From: Folioceros fuciformis
Lineage: Eukaryota
Direction: 5' to 3'
DNA: 52,652 nucleotides
Assembly: GCA_049999805.1 (NCBI GenBank)
Contig: JBNGIO010005956.1
Span: 76,614 to 129,265 of the forward strand
Made by a program: the position numbers and the translations under genes. This document shows positions 17,800 to 36,084 of this stretch, one piece after another. The notes under the pieces were generated by a model. The model did not search any database. It was not told the origin of the DNA and saw only the letters and a list, made by a program, of their open reading frames with translations. Within the stretch, counting starts at the first letter, position 1. Every line of letters begins with the position of its first letter.

Positions 17800-18470
17800 A
17801 AGTGCCTACCATCTGTGGGGGAGGCACTTCATTGAGAGTTCTTGGGGATTTTGCCTATATATGTGAGCTACCGTTCTTGGGGATTTTGCTTATATACGTT
17901 AGCTACCCAGCGATGGATTCTCAGATTGTTGATGTTTGTCTTATTCTAATAGACAACCATACTTCGTCCCTGCTGTGTCTTTGTCTCCCGGAGGTTCTTG
18001 TGGTCTGTTGCATTGTCAGGTTGGGAGAACTTTTCATCTTGATTTTACCACATCAACAATTTTCCATCTTGACTTTAGCTCTTGGGACTTTCAATCCATA
18101 TTTCTTGTTATTTGGACACAATGCAGTGTTTCCGAATGTGGTGAAGGATACTAACTCCAACCCTATTGACTAGAGCAAAAATGCAAATATGTGCTTGGCA
18201 AAGGTTCAAGCCAGAGCAAAGGTGTTTTAAAGGATTCTTCCTATGGCTATGGACAATTTGGCTGTGGCCCAGCATCGGGACCAACTGAGGTATGCTTACA
18301 TGCGGGGGGGCTCATGGAAGCCCAAAGCTCGCAAGTTTGCACTTGGAGATTATGTGTATTTGCAGCACAGGCCTGCAAGCATGTTGGATGTCAGCATAGG
18401 GAGGCTTATCTTGAGAGTTGTGCAAGTTGGTAAGCAGCTGTTGTGTTTTCTAGGCAAAGTGATCTAGACA
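17800..18470 (+). mobile_element. Ty3/gypsy integrase C-terminal relic
   Basis: Frameshifted peptides '...PYFLLFGH...' and 'NLAVAQHRDQLRYAYMRGGSWKPKARKFALGDYVYL...ILRV' resemble the end of gypsy integrases of non-seed plants. Confidence 0.65.
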
Positions 18471-18734
18471 ATTTTGTGGGAAACCTGGTGGCTAAGCCCC
18501 CAAGTTTCCCAAGAGGGCTGTTCGCGGCCTTGGGCCTGCCTCTTTTAGGCAGACCTAGCCCCTTCTTGTAGCCTTACTCTTGGTCATAGGCCAAGAACAA
18601 TTTGTGGCTAGGTTGTTGATCTTGGGCCATAGGCCAAGGATATCGCAGGTGGGCTAGTGCTTAGATACTTAGCATTGTGGATAAGCTGGGTAGGCTTGCA
18701 GCTATGCAGCTGCTGCGCGACAAGTGCGCAAAAA

Positions 18735-19020
18735 GACTTTTCAAGGTTCATCGAGGAAGGCTTAAAAAGGATTTTTCAAGGCTAATGAAGGAGTGCGTAA
18801 AGGTACATCACAGTTATAGGAATGGGTTCTTCCTCTTTCCTTAGTGGTGGCCTTCTTTCGACAATGCGTATTCATTACTCTACAAAGGGCATTGGCCAAT
18901 GCAATCGTTAACTTAGTGACAAGTGTGAGTCAAGTGGCTTCTTTTGTCAGCTGTTGTAAATAGGTCTTTTGTTATTTCACATCCCGACATTTCGAGAGCA
19001 ATAGATAATTTTGGGAGATA
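18735..19020 (+). mobile_element. CRE-like non-LTR retrotransposon fragment, copy 2
   Basis: Reverse-complement homolog of ~7820-8065 (GACTTTTCAAGGTTCATC...CAAAGGGCATTGGCCAA...TTTTGTTATTTCACATC). Confidence 0.65.
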
Positions 19021-19498
19021 GCTAGGTCGTGGTTCGCATGTGATGGTGGTGAAGGCGCTAATATAAGGTTGCAAGCAGTTGTGGTGGCATCTTAACCTCC
19101 AAAGGGGGGCTCGGCTGCTAACACATGGGCGGAGGTGGTCAATGAGGGTAAATACAGTAATGCTTCTGACAATATCATGATGGACAGAGTTAATAGGGTG
19201 ATTCAGTTGAACAAATAATTTTGGAAATGATATTCAAGGGGCCTAGTTCTCCTTTTCCAAACTAACTTCAATTGCACTTCGACATTCTTTTCTAGAGATG
19301 TTAGTGGAAGTGTGACAATATTGGTTGGGTGTCAACAAAAAGAGCCAAATGGTTCTAACACCTAGTCAAATGGTTCTCTTAGTTCATTGAGACGCAACAC
19401 ATGTCATCGGTATGTTACCATGTTACAACCTTCCCACCGCCAACCACCAGCAAGCTGTACGTGTCACAAGATGGCAACTGTGCTGGGTCTTTCTATTT

Positions 19499-22480
19499 TC
19501 AAGGTCGACCCTTACAAGTGCAACAACCATCTGCAAAACGATGCACACGGTACGCATCCCTGACAACAATGTCTCTCCTTTCAACCCTTGACATGATCTC
19601 GGTAGAACTGTGGCAGTCACTGCACATGCGTAGATTCTTGGTTACCAGCAAAGGTGTGCCACTGGGAGTGTTCAAGAGACCGTACGCAAGAGCTAGCTTT
19701 TCAGCATGCCCACAAAGCAATTCCTCTTTATCCTTCTCAGACAGGGGCTTCAGTACCAAGTTGGTGTGTGGTACATGACCCCCTTCCTCCTTCAGACGCA
19801 CATTTACACTCTCTACCTTAAGCGAAATATCCTCTCTCCGATCTCCCACCACGAATGTATGTACCTGCTTCCCCACCTCAATGCCTGCCACTGCAGGTTT
19901 CTTGTTAGCTCCTGCTCCCACTCTCTGCTTTTCGATCCTGTCTACATCTGCCCACCTACCTGCATCTGCATATACATTGGCCATGAGCACATATGTGGAA
20001 GCCCGCTGAGGATCAAGTCGAACCAGACTTTCGAAACACCGAATGCCCCTCTCTACATCTCCGTGCCTTTTGCAAGCATTCAGCAAAGACGTCAGACCCA
20101 CCACGTCATTTTGACTCTCATACGATGAGAGCACCTTCTCTGCCTCGTCTAAATGGCCTGCACGCCCAAGAAGATCAACCATGCAGGTGTAATGCCCTGT
20201 GGCAGGTTTGATGCCATGCTGTCCAAACATGGCATCAAAGTGCTTGCGACCCTCATTCACCAGTCCCGCATGACTGCATGCTACTAAAAGGCAAGTGAAG
20301 GTGACATCGTTAGGATGAACGCCAGCTCCTTGCATCTCCTCAAAACACGCTAGTGCCTTTTGACCTTCATCACAAGCACCGTAGCCCGCTATCAGGGCAT
20401 TCCATGTCACCGCATCCTTTGTGGCCAAACTGTCAAAAACTCTCCGTGCCTCTTCCGGTTCCCCGCATTTTGCGTACATGTCCACCAGGCAGGTGCCAAC
20501 CATCATGTCAATCTCCAGCTGTCCTCTTCCTCCAATTTGGGAGTGCAGCCGCCTCCCCAACTGCAAGGCACCAGTGCTTGCACATGCCTTCAAAAGGCAA
20601 GAGAAAGTCACACTGTCAGCAACAATCAGGCCCTCCACCTCCATTTGTTCATGAAGAAGGAGGGCCTCTCGCGCGAGGCCGTTATTTGCATACCCAGCAA
20701 TCAGAGCGTTCCATGTCACCACATTTTTTGAGGACAGGCCATTAAAAACACGGCGTGCATTCTCCAGATCACCACATTTTGCGTACATGTCCACCAGAGA
20801 GTTGCCAACAAACAAGTTGAGAGGGACGCCGCTGTGCAACAAATCAAAGTGCACTTGTCTGCCTGATTCCAAGTCGGCTGCGACTGCACAGGCTTGAAGA
20901 GCAGCTACGAAGACGTGAGCATCCGCCTTCAGACCTGAGCTCCGCATCTCGTGGTACAACTGTATGCCCTTCTGTGCCGCACCAGCGTTTGCGCAGGCCT
21001 TTAGAAGGGAAGCAAAGGTAACATGGTCAGCCAAAATCAGGCCCTCTTGCTTCATTCGTCCATACAGGAGAAGAGCCTCTTGACCCAGCCCATGATTTGC
21101 ATAACCAGCTATAAGGGCGGTCCATGTCACCACATCCTTCGAGGACAAGCCGTCGAAAACCTGGCGTGCATCTTCCATTTCGCCACATTTTGCATACATA
21201 TCCACCAAGCAGTTGCTAACAATCAAGTTGCCTAGCTGACCTCTTCCCACAATCTGCAAGTGCAGCTGCCTGCCCTTTTGTAAGGCACCTGTGCTTGCAC
21301 ACGCCTTGAGAAGGGAGGCAAACGTGACTTGGTTGGCCGCAATCAACCCCTCTTGCTCCATCTGTTCATGGAGAAGGAGGGCCTGTTGACCGTGCCCGTG
21401 ATTTGCATACCCCGCTATGAGGGAATTCCATGTCACAACATCCTTTACGCCCATGCCCTCAAAAGCCTGGCGTGCATCATCCAGTTTTCCACATTTTGCA
21501 TACATGTCGACCAGGGAGTTGCCAACAAACAAGTTAGAAGCAATACTGCTGTGCAACACATCAGAGTGCACTTTTCTACCAGATTCCAGGTCGCTGGCAA
21601 GTGCGCAAGCTTGAAGGGCAGCTACAAAGACATGGGCATCCGCCGTCACACCTGACCTACACATTTCATGATACAGCAGTATGGCCTCCTTAGGCTTCCG
21701 ATGTTGAGCGTGTGCGGAGATGATGGAAGACCAGATGAAGGCATCTGGTTGGCCAACCCTGGTGAACACGTCCATGGCCTCTTGCAACCTTCCCGCAGAT
21801 GCATACATGCGCAAGATGTGGTTCCCCAAGAAAGCATCCGACTCGTACCCGAGTTTGACAGAGAGATAATGAACTCGTCGCCCCAGAACCAGATCCTTCT
21901 TGGCTGCACAAAGTTTTAGCACGGCATAAACAAGAGACTCAGAAACACGACAGTCCGTCTGCGCCAAAAATTCCAGGGCCTCAACGGCCTCCGTGGGCTT
22001 CCCCTGCTGACACAACGAGCTTACGGTCACAGGAGTCACACCCACGTCCGACCCTGAAGGAGAAGCCCCATGACTCATCTGCATATCCAAAGCAACCAGC
22101 TGCTCATCTACCCAGGCAGGCTTGAGAAAGTTGTCAAGCCAGAGGACCTCGCCGGACCCCTTGCGTCGGAAGTCAGGCGAACGGGAGCTCTTCTTATCTC
22201 GCCTGTTATCCCACCACACCGTAGGATCCAGAAAAAACTGCCGCCACAGGAGCTCCTGCTCCTCCCCCTGGCGACGACCATCCCGGGAACGGGGAAGTCC
22301 TTCTCCAACCACACCTTTTCTCAGAACTGCAGGGTTCCTCCCACTGCTGCACCTGCAAGCGTGCTTGTCTGCCATTGCGTGACTGCCTAGAGAGAGCTGA
22401 GCGGGAGCTCCTGGAACAACCCCTGTCCTCCCACCAATTTGCTGAGTCCACAAGGCATCCGGTTGCCACACGGTGGCCAT
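19499..22480 (-). CDS. PLS-class PPR protein with E1-E2-DYW:KP (GRP-type) domain and N-terminal PDF motif; candidate U-to-C organellar RNA editing factor
   Basis: Intronless 993-aa ORF with ~19 P/L/S motifs including a P-LL-L-S unit, then P2-L2-S2-E1-E2. KPAVAGIE replaces the PG box, followed by HAEKLA, CSDC and a C-terminal CTCKGRP. N-terminal LWRQFFLDPTVWWDNRRDKKSSRSPDF...LWL...PAWV motif. Confidence 0.93.
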   Translation of the reverse strand: MATVWQPDALWTQQIGGRTGVVPGAPAQLSLGSHAMADKHACRCSSGRNPAVLRKGVVGEGLPRSRDGRRQGEEQELLWRQFFLDPTVWWDNRRDKKSSRSPDFRRKGSGEVLWLDNFLKPAWVDEQLVALDMQMSHGASPSGSDVGVTPVTVSSLCQQGKPTEAVEALEFLAQTDCRVSESLVYAVLKLCAAKKDLVLGRRVHYLSVKLGYESDAFLGNHILRMYASAGRLQEAMDVFTRVGQPDAFIWSSIISAHAQHRKPKEAILLYHEMCRSGVTADAHVFVAALQACALASDLESGRKVHSDVLHSSIASNLFVGNSLVDMYAKCGKLDDARQAFEGMGVKDVVTWNSLIAGYANHGHGQQALLLHEQMEQEGLIAANQVTFASLLKACASTGALQKGRQLHLQIVGRGQLGNLIVSNCLVDMYAKCGEMEDARQVFDGLSSKDVVTWTALIAGYANHGLGQEALLLYGRMKQEGLILADHVTFASLLKACANAGAAQKGIQLYHEMRSSGLKADAHVFVAALQACAVAADLESGRQVHFDLLHSGVPLNLFVGNSLVDMYAKCGDLENARRVFNGLSSKNVVTWNALIAGYANNGLAREALLLHEQMEVEGLIVADSVTFSCLLKACASTGALQLGRRLHSQIGGRGQLEIDMMVGTCLVDMYAKCGEPEEARRVFDSLATKDAVTWNALIAGYGACDEGQKALACFEEMQGAGVHPNDVTFTCLLVACSHAGLVNEGRKHFDAMFGQHGIKPATGHYTCMVDLLGRAGHLDEAEKVLSSYESQNDVVGLTSLLNACKRHGDVERGIRCFESLVRLDPQRASTYVLMANVYADAGRWADVDRIEKQRVGAGANKKPAVAGIEVGKQVHTFVVGDRREDISLKVESVNVRLKEEGGHVPHTNLVLKPLSEKDKEELLCGHAEKLALAYGLLNTPSGTPLLVTKNLRMCSDCHSSTEIMSRVERRDIVVRDAYRVHRFADGCCTCKGRP

Positions 22481-22599
22481 GTTACACCACCTGTCGCTGT
22501 CGGGAAAATTGAGACGGCAGGACTCCTAGGCACTCTGCATAGCCAACAACAAGACGTGAAGAGGCTACCCCATCCTCAGCAAGCGCAGTGTAGACGCTG

Positions 22600-22850
22600 T
22601 AAGTATCTGCAGATAAATGGAAGCGTGGGAAGATCAATTCCACCCCGCATTCTTCTCAGGGAAAGTCTCAGACACAGCATCCGTTCTTCCAGGCTCCTGC
22701 ATTTCGCACACACATTGAATGAGAAAGCTTCCACCTCAGAATCCGATCCAAGTCCCAGCTCAGAAGCCTTGCCCCTACGCTGCAAAGCTGCTGCAGGCTG
22801 CATCGCCCGGTTCAGCTCTGCACCTGTAAGGTCCTCAGCAATCTATGTTG
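22600..22850 (-). pseudogene. Decayed PLS-PPR fragment immediately upstream of the DYW:KP gene
   Basis: Frameshifted L/S-like peptides 'AACSSFAA', 'GSFLI/NVCAKCRSLEE', 'VFETFPEKN.GWN'. Confidence 0.5.
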
Positions 22851-23685
22851 CGGGCGTCTCAAAATCAAGCAATCACAAGATACGTTTTCGCCAAGGGCTC
22901 ACAATCTTCTTGTCATCCAGGACGCCAGTTTCCGTCTCTCTCAACCAGAGGCTGAGCCCAATTTCATCACCCTTTCAGGTAAAGTTATCTGGAAACGATC
23001 TCCTTTCGCAAGGAACCATAAAAAGATATCTAAACCATTAAAAGATATGTAAAGTAAGAGATTGTAAAGAATATGTAAAGCAAGAGATGAAAAAAAAACA
23101 TAGCTTCGATTGTCATTGTCTGTAAGGTGTCATTTTGACTGTTTCAGTCCTCTGGTTTGGAATATGGATAAGGACACCACTTGTATAATATATAGTCCAG
23201 TATTTTTAATTTTATGGATATGAACTGCATGGGCAGTGTGTGGTTATTAGGGCATCGCCAATATGGCCATCACCAAAGGATGACTCTTTTTCTTTCTTGA
23301 CACACCGCTGAACAAAATACTTTTTTTTTTGGGACAAAATGTCATCATGGTTTTTAGGGTTCGAGCGCACATAGAAACCAAATCACCATGCTTGTTGTCG
23401 CCTCCTTCTTGTGAACCTAGTCCATTCTCTCTTGAGGCAAGGGTCATAGCCAAGCAAGTCTAGTTCCTTCGAGGCAACAATCATGTTGCAACACCTTCGA
23501 CTACATAAAGGTAGGGAGAATGGAACCATACCATCTTTATTCCAAGCATCTGAGGGCAACATGATCCAACAACAGTTTATGGACAAAAAGGCAAACTCTT
23601 GCATACTATTTCTAAGACCAAAGAAGACAAATGTCGATCAACGCCCATGGAGTGGTCTCATTCTCTGTCCATAACTGCAAGTACA

Positions 23686-23850
23686 CCTCCAATGGCTTCA
23701 TCTTGTTCCTGCACTTTGTACGCAACATTGTTAAAGCCAACCTCCAATGGCTTCATCTTGTTCCTGCACTTTGTACGCAACACTGTTAAAGCCAACCTCC
23801 AATGGCTTCATCTTGTTCCTACACTTTGTACGCAACATTGTTAAAGCCAA
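23686..23850. repeat. 55-bp tandem repeat x3
   Basis: CCTCCAATGGCTTCATCTTGTTCCTGCACTTTGTACGCAACATTGTTAAAGCCAA at 23686, 23741, 23796. Confidence 0.92.
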
Positions 23851-24035
23851 GTGCAGCTCATACATGTCCGGGAGGAAGTTCATACTCTCCAAGCCCTGTG
23901 CATACGCATACGACAATGATTAAAATATGCACTTGCAAGACAAGTTGCAATTGTAAGTTATAAGGGCATATGAAAGGCAAGATTAGAGGCACTCTGCAAG
24001 GGTTTCTGCAACTACACTCCATTTGGTCATTTGCA

Positions 24036-24171
24036 ACACAATGTGGAAGGGCTCCGCAAGGCCTATAGCAAGGGACACAATGTNNNNNNNNNNCACAATG
24101 TGGAAGGGCTCCGCAAGGCCTATAGCAAGGGACACAATGTGGAAGGGCTCCGCAAGGCCTACAGCAAGGGA
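24036..24171. repeat. 39-bp tandem repeat (>=3 copies, spans an N gap), followed by a TGCAAG-rich degenerate tract to ~24850
   Basis: CACAATGTGGAAGGGCTCCGCAAGGCCTATAGCAAGGGA repeated. Confidence 0.85.
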
Positions 24172-26792: not shown

Positions 26793-29449
<2,657 letters not shown>

Positions 29450-33405: not shown

Positions 33406-36084
33406 TCAACCCATGAAACGTCCCACACCGACATATTGGAGCCCATCCACCACCTCCTCCTCTTCTGCAGTTCGTTCTTGTTTTGTGCCTATCTCAGTAG
33501 TTCGGCGAGCTCCAAATCTTCTGGCACTGCGAACCATGTCTTTGGCTTTTCGATCGGGTGTCAGTCCAGCCAGCTGCATTTCTTCAAACACCTGGGGAAC
33601 CTGCAGAGTCCGTATCCGAGTTAGTCACTGTCTCGTGCTGACGGCGCATTCTGAAGGGTGGGCCTTTGAGTTGACCTGATCTAACTGACCAGCCTTCGTG
33701 AGACCCTTCATGAGTGTGGTGTAACTGACCACATCCGGAGACAATCCCTGTAGGGGACAATTGCGTAAACACATAAGAAATTTTGTGGACACATGAAGCA
33801 CAGGCGGACTACTGCTTCTTACAGATTCTTTCATATAATCCAGAACTTGAGATGCTTCCTCATGTCTTGCAGCAACTGCGAATGAGTTCAGAAGCACATT
33901 CAACATGAGCATGTTGGGCTCAATGCCATCTTCTTCCATTCGTTGAAACAGCACCACAGCTTGCTCGGCCATGCCCTGTCGTGCAGTAAAACGAGTTTCA
34001 TTCAGAGTCAGATCCCAGGCTGCGTACGTCATACGCGAGAGCTCAAATAGTAAGTGGCCAGCTAGACAGCAGCAGTACGTTGCAAAAGGTGGAGTGGGAG
34101 ATGGAGTAGAAACTGCCCCCTTACGACGGACACAACAATAAAGGCGGCTAACCTGTTTAGCATAGGCGTTTGCAAGCGCACAATAAACACTAGGACTGGG
34201 CTTCATGCCTTGCTCCTTCATGCGCTCCACACATTCAACAGCATCTCTATAACGGCCAGATTGGCCATAAATGTCAACTAATGTAGTGTACGTGATGACA
34301 TCACCAGTCAGATTAGACTCTCTCATTCTCTCCAGGAAAGAATCTAGTAGATCCCACCGTTTGGCAAGGCCCATTGCATTGATCATGATATTATATGTTG
34401 TGATGTCTGGGGGACATCCGTCCTTGTGCATTTGTACCATCGCACGTCGTGCATCCTTAAAATGACCTGCTTTACAATGGGCATACACCAGTGAGTTCCA
34501 GGACACCAGATCTGGTTCAATGCCTTCGGTGGACATCCGTTCAAACACCTGTTGAGCCTTCTTAGGCTGCCCCAGTTTGGCAAAAGTATCGATGACAATA
34601 TTGAAGACGTGCCTGTTGGGTGGAATATTGGCAGCATTCATCTCTTGCATCATTCTTATCACACTCGCCCATTGGCCTGTATCCCTCAAACAGGCCATCA
34701 GCCTGCTGTACATAAAAGCGTTGGGCTGCACATTGTCAGCCTCCATGCCACGGACCATGGATCGTGCTTTCTCTAACTGGCCTGCCCTCGTGTAAAAGTC
34801 AAGAAGCACACCATAGCAGTAAGCATTAGGAGTCACTCCACTTTCTTTCATGATCCTGAGAAGGTTCTCAGCTTGCTCAAGCATTCCCTTCTTGGCATAA
34901 GCAGAAAGCAAAGCCGAATATGCCCGAAGTTTCGGAACTCCACAGTCTACCTTCATCTTCTCGAACAGGAGTTCTACATCCTGCGTCCTTCCAATGGGTC
35001 CCAAGGCCTCCATGAGCCCAATATAACCTTTAGCCTCACACGGAAAACCAGCCTTTCTCATTTTCTCCCATAACCCGAGCGCCTCAGCTGCCCCTCCAGC
35101 CTGAGCACACGCGTACACTAGGTCACTATACAACTTGGCATCTATGTCCACGTTGTCACCTAGCATCTTCTCGTAGACCTCCAATATGACGGAGAGATCC
35201 ACCTTGGCAATCACGCAAGCCTGAACCAGTTTGCTGTAGTTCAAGGCATCGGTCTGAAATCCCGCCAACTTCATTTCCCTAAGCAGATCTACTGCCCTCA
35301 CATGATCACCTTCGTGACAGCAAGCTCCGATGAGCGCATTGTACACAAACGCTCCCCAGGATCCACTACTTCGCCTAACTCTTTCTGCCAATTCAAAAGC
35401 ATCCTGGAGCCTGCCCAGCTTGCTCAGACCATGAATGATAATCGAGTACAGTACATCGTACGACTGACAAACACGATAGGCCTCGAGCCAGCCCAGTAGC
35501 TTCAGAGCAGCGTCACACCTTCCAAATATGCACATCCGTCTGACCAACTTGTTCCACGCAGACTGCGGCACTCCCTTATACACAAACACGGGCAGCTCCG
35601 CCGGATCAAACCCATCTGCACCTTCGAAGTACTTCACCAGTGGCATCAGATTCCACCCTGGATTCCACACCAATGAGCTATTCTTTGTGTCCAAATGCGG
35701 TAGCAAGCCGTCCTGGTCCTCTTCAATGGGTCTCCATTTCTGCCGCTTGATCCTCTTGAGCTTCGGCCACTGTTTTACGCCTTCCTGGCGCCACACCGTC
35801 TGCTCATCCCCCGAAGTGCTCAGCTCCACCTCTTGTCCTGCTTGCACACCGTGGCTCCTCAAATCCGTGGACAGCTCCTGGAATTTGTCCTGCTCTAGTG
35901 CCCCACAGCACAAGACAGAAATCCCTGTCTGCCTCTTGCCCCTCCAGCCGGAGGTCGCTCTTAGAGGACAAAAATTTGGGATCCCCAAGGGTCCAATGGG
36001 CTTCAAGGATAGCATGCTCTCCCAAGACCCAGATACATGCAGCTTCGCAGGACACAAATGCACATTCAGCAATTGCAGTTGCAT
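33406..36084 (-). CDS. CRP1: P-class PPR protein, CRP1-like (chloroplast RNA processing 1), 4 exons
   Basis: Exons 36084-34153, 33975-33823, 33747-33676, 33600-33406. About 14 P motifs colinear with Arabidopsis CRP1/At5g42310 as recalled (YNALIGAC, VQPNAFMYSRLMA, IEPDLVSWNSL, PDRKAKDMVRSA). Start Met uncertain. Confidence 0.82.

Follow-up and report, generated by a model that had tools for sequence, protein, structure and literature searches.

The window analysed here is a stretch of 52,652 nucleotides of the Folioceros fuciformis contig JBNGIO010005956.1, and the gene of interest encodes a pentatricopeptide repeat (PPR) protein of 993 residues, a predicted organellar RNA editing factor with a DYW:KP domain at its C-terminus. 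Close to its N-terminus this protein carries a PDF motif of the kind known from the OSB proteins of plants (for organellar single-stranded DNA-binding). As judged from the sequences collected, the fusion is neither a one-off nor specific to KP-type factors. The window protein belongs to what is apparently a large and undescribed subfamily of PLS PPR proteins with one to three N-terminal PDF modules, which is found in lycophytes, ferns and the hornwort-type lineage of the window, and whose C-termini are of the E, DYW:PG or DYW:KP type. The domain itself is known; the architecture in which it stands here is new, recurs and has apparently not been described.

The gene occupies the minus strand as a single open reading frame (ORF, 19499-22480) running from ATG to stop, 993 codons plus the stop, and no intron is needed. 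An in-frame stop lies 16 codons 5' of the ATG. The order of parts in the protein (P0002) is presequence, PDF motif, linker, PLS PPR array, E motif and DYW:KP domain, and the frame stays open, with no stop or shift, from the PDF motif through to the DYW domain. An earlier note on this DNA had placed a PDF peptide at 22097-22252, between a putative transit peptide and the first PPR of one uninterrupted ORF. Position and arrangement are both right; the strand, which was not given there, is the minus strand, the plus-strand translation of the same nucleotides being unrelated to the PDF peptide. The peptide corresponds to residues 77-128.

Identity of the PDF motif

A 62-residue stretch around the motif was used as phmmer query against 1.84 billion representative proteins. 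At E<=1e-3 it matched 598 proteins, of which 141 reached <=1e-10 and 16 reached <=1e-30; the phmmer figures by protein type given below rest on the best 150 of the 598. One of the matches, P0034 of Populus nigra (E 2.9e-22), bears the annotation 'protein OSB1, mitochondrial-like'. A profile (A1) built from 13 PPR-linked motifs matched 707 proteins at E<=1e-3, and the best 120 of these, on which the profile figures rest, include named OSB1, OSB2, OSB3 and OSB4 of many angiosperms. In a BLASTP comparison with OSB1 of Eutrema salsugineum (P0189), all four PDF repeats align with the window motif at 45-55% identity (E 2e-16 to 1e-13).

The agreement extends to the residues that define the motif. 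The signature is present as P102-D103-F104, and all the columns that are at least 90% conserved in 495 PDF instances from outside PPR proteins (W, W, D, R, K, P-D-F, L-W and P) are kept. Against a PDF profile built from the matches, the window motif scores 73 bits, with an envelope of residues 74-131. The similarity is far beyond chance, and on this evidence the motif is a genuine OSB-type PDF motif, as the earlier note had proposed.

According to the available text of the relevant papers, the PDF motif is about 50 residues long, bears a Pro-Asp-Phe signature, is C-terminal in OSB proteins and is responsible for their binding to single-stranded DNA (ssDNA) (PMC6963530, PMC4166229, PMC6451138, PMC13393729). 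Review passages among these sources state that the motif of AtOSB1 suffices by itself for ssDNA binding (PMC6963530, PMC6451138), and that recombinant AtOSB1 and AtOSB2 favour ssDNA over double-stranded DNA or RNA (PMC4166229).

Other searches gave less. No Pfam family matched the N-terminal 147 residues, tblastn found no second copy of the motif within the window, a word-based protein search round the motif returned one match at near lengths and none at shorter lengths, and a search of the ESM Atlas returned no usable match. Membership of the OSB family itself was considered for the window protein and rejected because the SSB/OB-like domain is absent (no PF00436 match in a Pfam scan at E<=1). 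It is worth adding that named OSBs themselves match SSB weakly.

Recurrence of the fusion

Twelve of the 150 listed phmmer matches also match the PPR region of the window protein, and one of them (P0134) also matches its DYW domain. Among the best 120 profile matches, 55 combine PDF and PPR, 14 of these with a DYW domain. A count was made over 281 collected proteins, a number that takes in the window protein and some isoforms from clusters: 273 have a PDF match, 72 have PDF and PPR, and 16 have PDF, PPR and DYW. The named sources of PDF-PPR proteins are Diphasiastrum complanatum (dozens of loci), Selaginella, Adiantum capillus-veneris, Ceratopteris richardii and Pteridium aquilinum. These figures come from partial sets (150 of 598 and 120 of 707) and are no basis for claiming absence from mosses, liverworts or seed plants.

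The arrangement is consistent. Every PDF+PPR protein found has one to three PDF motifs N-terminal of the PPR array, and in the 72 proteins the gap from the end of the last of these to the first PPR alignment is mostly a few to about 45 residues. One protein (P0194) has an additional second PDF motif inside the array. The C-termini are more varied. All 14 PDF-PPR-DYW proteins of Diphasiastrum have a GDYW end and an xGxSWIE box (literally PG in 12, RG in one and AG in one) and are thus of the DYW:PG type, and in many other PDF-PPR proteins an E-type motif is the last element. KP/GRP ends were seen, among the matches listed, only in the window protein and P0134. Since carriers of the PG type and carriers ending in E are common, the PDF module is an accessory of seedless-plant PLS proteins at large.

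Two points of the earlier note, the second of them implied there, have to be given up in the light of these counts. The first, that PLS-DYW factors normally carry no extra N-terminal domain, fails in seedless plants, given the 55 PDF+PPR proteins just described; the second, a special tie between the motif and U-to-C editing, with KP rather than PG domains, does not survive the finding that the 14 PDF-PPR-DYW proteins among the best 120 are all of the PG type and that many others end in E.

The closest counterpart of the window protein is P0134 (753 residues): identity amounts to 58% in the 605 C-terminal residues and to 47% in the N-terminal part, which includes the motif at the same place. 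It is 240 residues shorter and lacks a PPR block that is duplicated in the window protein. A further PDF-PLS protein, P0290 (692 residues), has a 'KKPGKAYIEV' box after the E region, and its sequence stops there with no HxE/CxxC deaminase core, either because the KP-like end is truncated or because the contig was cut. PDF motifs of the PPR type also occur on fragments, namely a 147-residue piece annotated 'pentatricopeptide repeat protein' and short proteins of Sphagnum.

Several PDF proteins of other kinds were noted. Multi-copy PDF motifs are present in the dinoflagellate Effrenium voratum (P0006, with 8 stretches, and members of its cluster) and in a marine-protist MMETSP transcript (P0195). 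Odd architectures are found in P0004 (Kingdonia uniflora, 1160 residues), P0044 (Coptis chinensis, 1526 residues) and P0043 (Striga hermonthica, 1063 residues); 13 PDF stretches are present in a single protein, PDF motifs stand before a kinesin motor domain, and SSB is combined with PDF in a protein that takes its name from an ICR/ROP interactor. Some of these may be merged gene models.

The evolution of the motif was followed in a FastTree phylogeny of 597 distinct motif instances, of which 102 are PPR-linked, built on an alignment of only 54 columns. When the label 'PPR-linked' is mapped on this tree it changes 8 times, against a mean of 95 in shuffles, and none of 500 shuffles was as low. 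So few changes fit, though they do not prove, a fusion that took place once or a few times and then multiplied as the PPR family expanded. No well-supported clade in the 597-instance tree contains the window motif, and the tree thus neither demonstrates a single origin of the fusion nor rules it out. The PPR-linked motifs retain the nearly invariant PDF residues and have in addition conserved positions of their own, FF-DPSQWW and KHK.

The remainder of the protein

The first 70 residues contain 8 R, 2 K, 10 G, 8 A and just 4 acidic residues, and are annotated on this composition as part of a putative organelle presequence (Table 1). The second Met of this N-terminal stretch is residue 36. There is no similarity between the presequences of the window protein and P0134, while the motif and the PPRs align.

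Pfam finds 13 stretches in the PPR array (PF01535, E 5e-92), and the E motif that follows it scores 54.6 bits against a cut-off of 27.3 (PF20431); a PPR array followed by E marks the protein as PLS-class. The array holds an internal duplication of about 590 nucleotides, which consists of two PLS blocks with 77% identical DNA.

The deaminase domain (DYW_deaminase, PF14432) aligns over residues 901-991 with 113.7 bits, and its zinc motifs are HAE at 925 and CSDCH at 953. The box KKPAVAGIEV stands in place of the PG box, its Lys-Pro pair being K861-P862, whereas the Diphasiastrum proteins read PGCSWIEV here. Counted from K861 the domain is exactly 133 residues long, which puts K948 at domain position 88 (Lys88). 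HAEKL is present, and the protein ends in GRP, not DYW. The published hallmarks of DYW:KP domains, as given in the accessible parts of two papers, are KP for PG, HAE, variable last triplets, and Lys88 in domains of 132-133 residues; the same sources distinguish two hornwort subgroups, DRH and GRP, by the last triplet (PMC9478123, PMC11845758). Every one of these hallmarks is found, and at the level of sequence the window protein is a canonical PLS-E-DYW:KP organellar editing factor of the GRP subtype, a subtype that by itself would point to a hornwort source. The earlier assignment of the deaminase to DYW:KP thus stands on its KP box, HAE, Lys88, CSDCH and GRP.

Predicted structure

AlphaFold2 was run on residues 66-140 with 19 short homologues, and gave a model with a mean predicted local distance difference test score (pLDDT) of 88.5 and a predicted template modelling score of 0.73. 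The predicted elements are a helix (68-84), three strands (89-91, 104-106 and 112-113) and a second helix (122/123-136/137), with pLDDT of 87-95, so that the folded PDF module spans approximately residues 68-137. A longer model, of residues 61-330 with 19 PDF-PPR homologues, has a mean pLDDT of 89.6 and contains the same module. In this model residues 136-145 are the only stretch with pLDDT below 50, and PPR helices with values above 90 come next. Because both models show the module, with just this stretch falling below 50, the PDF motif is predicted to be an independent domain, of helix-three strands-helix form, on a flexible linker of about 10 residues.

The predicted fold was compared with known structures. 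With Foldseek the PDB yielded no match at E<=1e-3 (the lowest E being 8.4), an exhaustive VIA-align comparison with 48,161 chains reached no Z>=5 (the highest being 4.9), and a sequence-profile search of the PDB returned only a spurious 13-bit row for CP29. Such a lack of matches indicates neither a new fold nor a function, nor does it speak against a function.

Transcription and translation

Eight contigs of the public run X1 cover the gene without mismatch; the run is of a kind guessed to be RNA. One contig (22189-22810, 622 nucleotides) spans the ATG, starting 330 nucleotides upstream of it, and extends into the motif. A second contig (21872-22187) holds what remains of the motif together with the first PPR helices. 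The cover is piecewise, as no listed X1 contig spans 22188, where these two abut, and for that reason a single transcript is not demonstrated. No public run recorded as RNA contains the locus. There is no X1 cover on 18180-19123 or 22900-24050, and missing cover carries no weight as evidence.

The 5' leader (22526-22705, minus strand), within the X1 contig cover, contains three in-frame upstream ATGs (at 22705, 22576 and 22540), each soon followed by a stop; these are possibly upstream ORFs.

A stronger argument for translation than the X1 contigs is, on comparative grounds, conservation. Many relatives have the 57-residue motif in frame at the corresponding place, with all its nearly invariant residues, whereas the presequences ahead of it have nothing in common; the motif is thus very probably translated.

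Positions of features and neighbouring genes

The features of the locus are collected in Table 1. Elsewhere in the window there is a second intronless PPR ORF (33625-36084, minus strand, 819 residues; PPR_2, E 1e-83) with a weak E motif, in which tblastn finds no PDF motif. An ORF of 252 residues on the plus strand (26793-27551) matches the first ~150 positions of the protein kinase domain (Pkinase, E 3.8e-43), and is probably one exon of a larger gene.

Table 1. Features of the PDF-PPR locus, in positions of the window.
Feature	Position	Strand	Basis
Mismatch-free cover by 8 contigs of public run X1 (kind guessed as RNA)	19198..22810	.	contig matching
Whole coding sequence (CDS)	19499..22480	-	ORF; Pfam PPR, E_motif, DYW_deaminase
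N-terminal 73 residues, putative organelle presequence	22262..22480	-	composition
PDF motif, residues 74-131 (hidden Markov model envelope)	22088..22261	-	OSB homology and AlphaFold2
Linker between PDF module and first PPR-type helix, residues 136-149	22034..22075	-	AlphaFold2 pLDDT
PLS-class PPR array, residues 150-805	20066..22033	-	Pfam PPR, PPR_1, PPR_2, PPR_3
E motif, residues 806-868	19877..20065	-	Pfam
DYW:KP domain, 133 residues (K861-P993)	19502..19900	-	Pfam and defining sequence features
Copies of the internal duplication (CDS nucleotides 1508-2093 and 791-1373)	20388-20973 and 21108-21690	-	self-BLASTN

Possible function of the PDF module

On the basis of these observations, we tentatively suggest that the PDF module is a cis-acting affinity and capture module, unspecific in itself, for the target transcript; we regard this as quite possible, if somewhat short of probable. 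The module would be a clamp for single-stranded nucleic acid, without sequence preference, built into the same chain as the specific reader. Binding to nucleic acid is suggested because aromatic and basic residues abound in the peptide (5 W, 4 F and 10 K/R in 52) and because PDF motifs are published to bind ssDNA. PPR arrays bind RNA in parallel, the N-terminus lying at the 5' end. Since the N-terminus of the array points to the RNA 5' end, the module would sit just 5' of the sequence-specific PPR footprint, where it could raise capture of the transcript or affinity for it. The PPR array would set the specificity, and the DYW:KP domain is predicted to carry out the U-to-C change. The role of the PDF module would then be generic to PLS editing factors and no part of the U-to-C chemistry. 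The logic would be the same as in fusions of RRM and PPR and in the ORRM helpers, by analogy.

Several points weigh against this proposal. AtOSB1 and AtOSB2 are reported, in the available text, to prefer ssDNA to RNA (PMC4166229), which favours a tether to DNA, and the predicted fold matches no solved structure and so gives no hint of function. The motif may be lost when the presequence is cleaved. P0134 has R for the P of P-D-F. Finally, the models of P0104 (Selaginella) and P0040 (Adiantum) start at the PDF motif; they are either 5'-truncated models or proteins not imported in the usual way, and because neither shows a visible presequence, gene models or localisation are uncertain here.

It is also conceivable, though unlikely, that the PDF module acts on DNA, as a tether of the kind raised in the earlier note: it would bind single-stranded organellar DNA in the nucleoid (transcription bubbles, R-loops or replication intermediates) and so concentrate the factor for co-transcriptional editing. 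The sole biochemistry reported for PDF motifs, in the parts of the sources available, is ssDNA binding, with OSB1 and OSB2 preferring ssDNA to RNA (PMC6963530, PMC4166229, PMC6451138), and the residues conserved in OSBs are all retained in the window motif. However, the PPR-linked motifs are largely separate in the tree and have their own positions, FF-DPSQWW and KHK, so that specificity may have shifted. A single motif may moreover bind weakly, whereas OSBs are described in the available text as multimeric or multi-copy (AtOSB2 is a tetramer, PMC6963530).

The module might instead contact protein, whether to bring in a partner (an OSB, a further factor of the PPR or E type, or machinery for import or assembly) or to mediate oligomerisation, which we consider rather improbable. 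A small domain, predicted to be independent and on a flexible tether, would suit such a role. In angiosperms, E-type factors need a DYW partner, and one to three copies of the motif occur on E-type proteins without a deaminase of their own, which must recruit one in trans. However, no partner is known, and the aromatic and basic make-up, together with the published ssDNA binding, suggests nucleic acid as the ligand.

A broader idea, which we likewise hold to be rather improbable, is that PDF-PLS proteins are an old and unrecognised class of land-plant editing factors, in which an OSB-derived ssDNA-binding module ties RNA editing physically to nucleoids or transcription bubbles. The module would be a built-in helper in seedless plants, doing the work of the trans-acting MORF and ORRM proteins of seed plants, and would have been lost where those took over. 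Lycophytes, ferns and the hornwort-type lineage of the window have the architecture, and Sphagnum has PDF-PPR-like fragments.

That the PDF motif forms no part of the working protein, owing to a downstream start (M133/M135), to removal with the presequence or to its being the relic of a decaying fusion, is very improbable: two Met codons do follow the motif (MQMSHG), no RNA run is on record for the locus and the cleavage site is not placed, but a 57-residue in-frame motif with every nearly invariant residue is unexpected in a 5' untranslated region or a relic, it scores 73 bits against the PDF profile, the same arrangement occurs in at least 72 proteins of several plant lineages, and an X1 contig (from the run guessed as RNA) continues unbroken from 330 nucleotides upstream of the ATG into the motif. 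The objections foreseen by the earlier note, of a poor profile match, a start downstream of the motif or an isolated fusion, fall away for the same reasons: the match to the PDF profile is strong, the motif is in frame in relatives and hence translated, and the fusion recurs.

Relation to known systems and significance

The window protein can be compared with four known systems. OSB proteins share the PDF motif of about 50 residues with its P-D-F signature, and named OSB1-4 are among the best 120 profile matches. They differ in having a central SSB/OB-like domain and a C-terminal PDF motif, whereas in the window protein the PDF motif is N-terminal and the rest is PPR-E-DYW. The hornwort PPR-DYW:KP proteins of the GRP subgroup, the natural proteins on which KP2 and KP3, designer editors for U-to-C, are based, have the same PLS array, E motif, 133-residue DYW:KP domain (with KP box, HAE, Lys88 and CxDCH) and GRP end. 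However, the accounts of this subgroup that were consulted include no N-terminal PDF module, and the designer proteins begin at the PPR array, behind a tag (PMC9478123).

The PDF-PLS proteins of Diphasiastrum complanatum, Selaginella, Adiantum, Ceratopteris and Pteridium have the same order of parts, with one to three PDF motifs, a short linker and a PLS array. They are annotated 'hypothetical protein' or as generic PPR proteins, and differ from the window protein in their E-type or DYW:PG (GDYW) ends and in that many have two or three PDF motifs, compared with one in the window. RRM-PPR fusions and ORRM factors likewise combine a generic single-strand-binding module with a sequence-specific PPR editing factor, according to the part of the text available (PMC13386178); their fold and family are unrelated to PDF, and the likeness is one of analogy only.

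No description of a fusion of PDF or OSB with PPR or DYW was found among the papers that the full-text searches listed, a scope that leaves supplements and most subscription papers outside; the earlier note likewise named no functional description of the architecture. In the available text of a 2026 paper on OSB evolution (PMC13393729) 'PPR' occurs 0 times, and in that of a 2026 kingdom-wide survey of editing factors (PMC13386178), which catalogues domain fusions, neither 'PDF' nor 'single-stranded' occurs. A paper that does contain both 'PDF motif' and 'pentatricopeptide' applies the latter to RNA polymerases.

PPR-DYW proteins are treated as a self-contained 'reader plus enzyme', and designer editors for both C-to-U and U-to-C have been built from the PPR array onwards. 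A widespread natural accessory at the N-terminus, which factors of the E, DYW:PG and DYW:KP types carry in several lineages, would add a new component to the editosome of seedless plants. It could help to explain efficient target capture in heavily editing lineages that have no MORF helpers, and the PDF module is a candidate add-on for better synthetic editors. The PDF motif, too, gains a wider known range: until now it has been discussed only as the DNA-binding part of the OSB genome-stability proteins.

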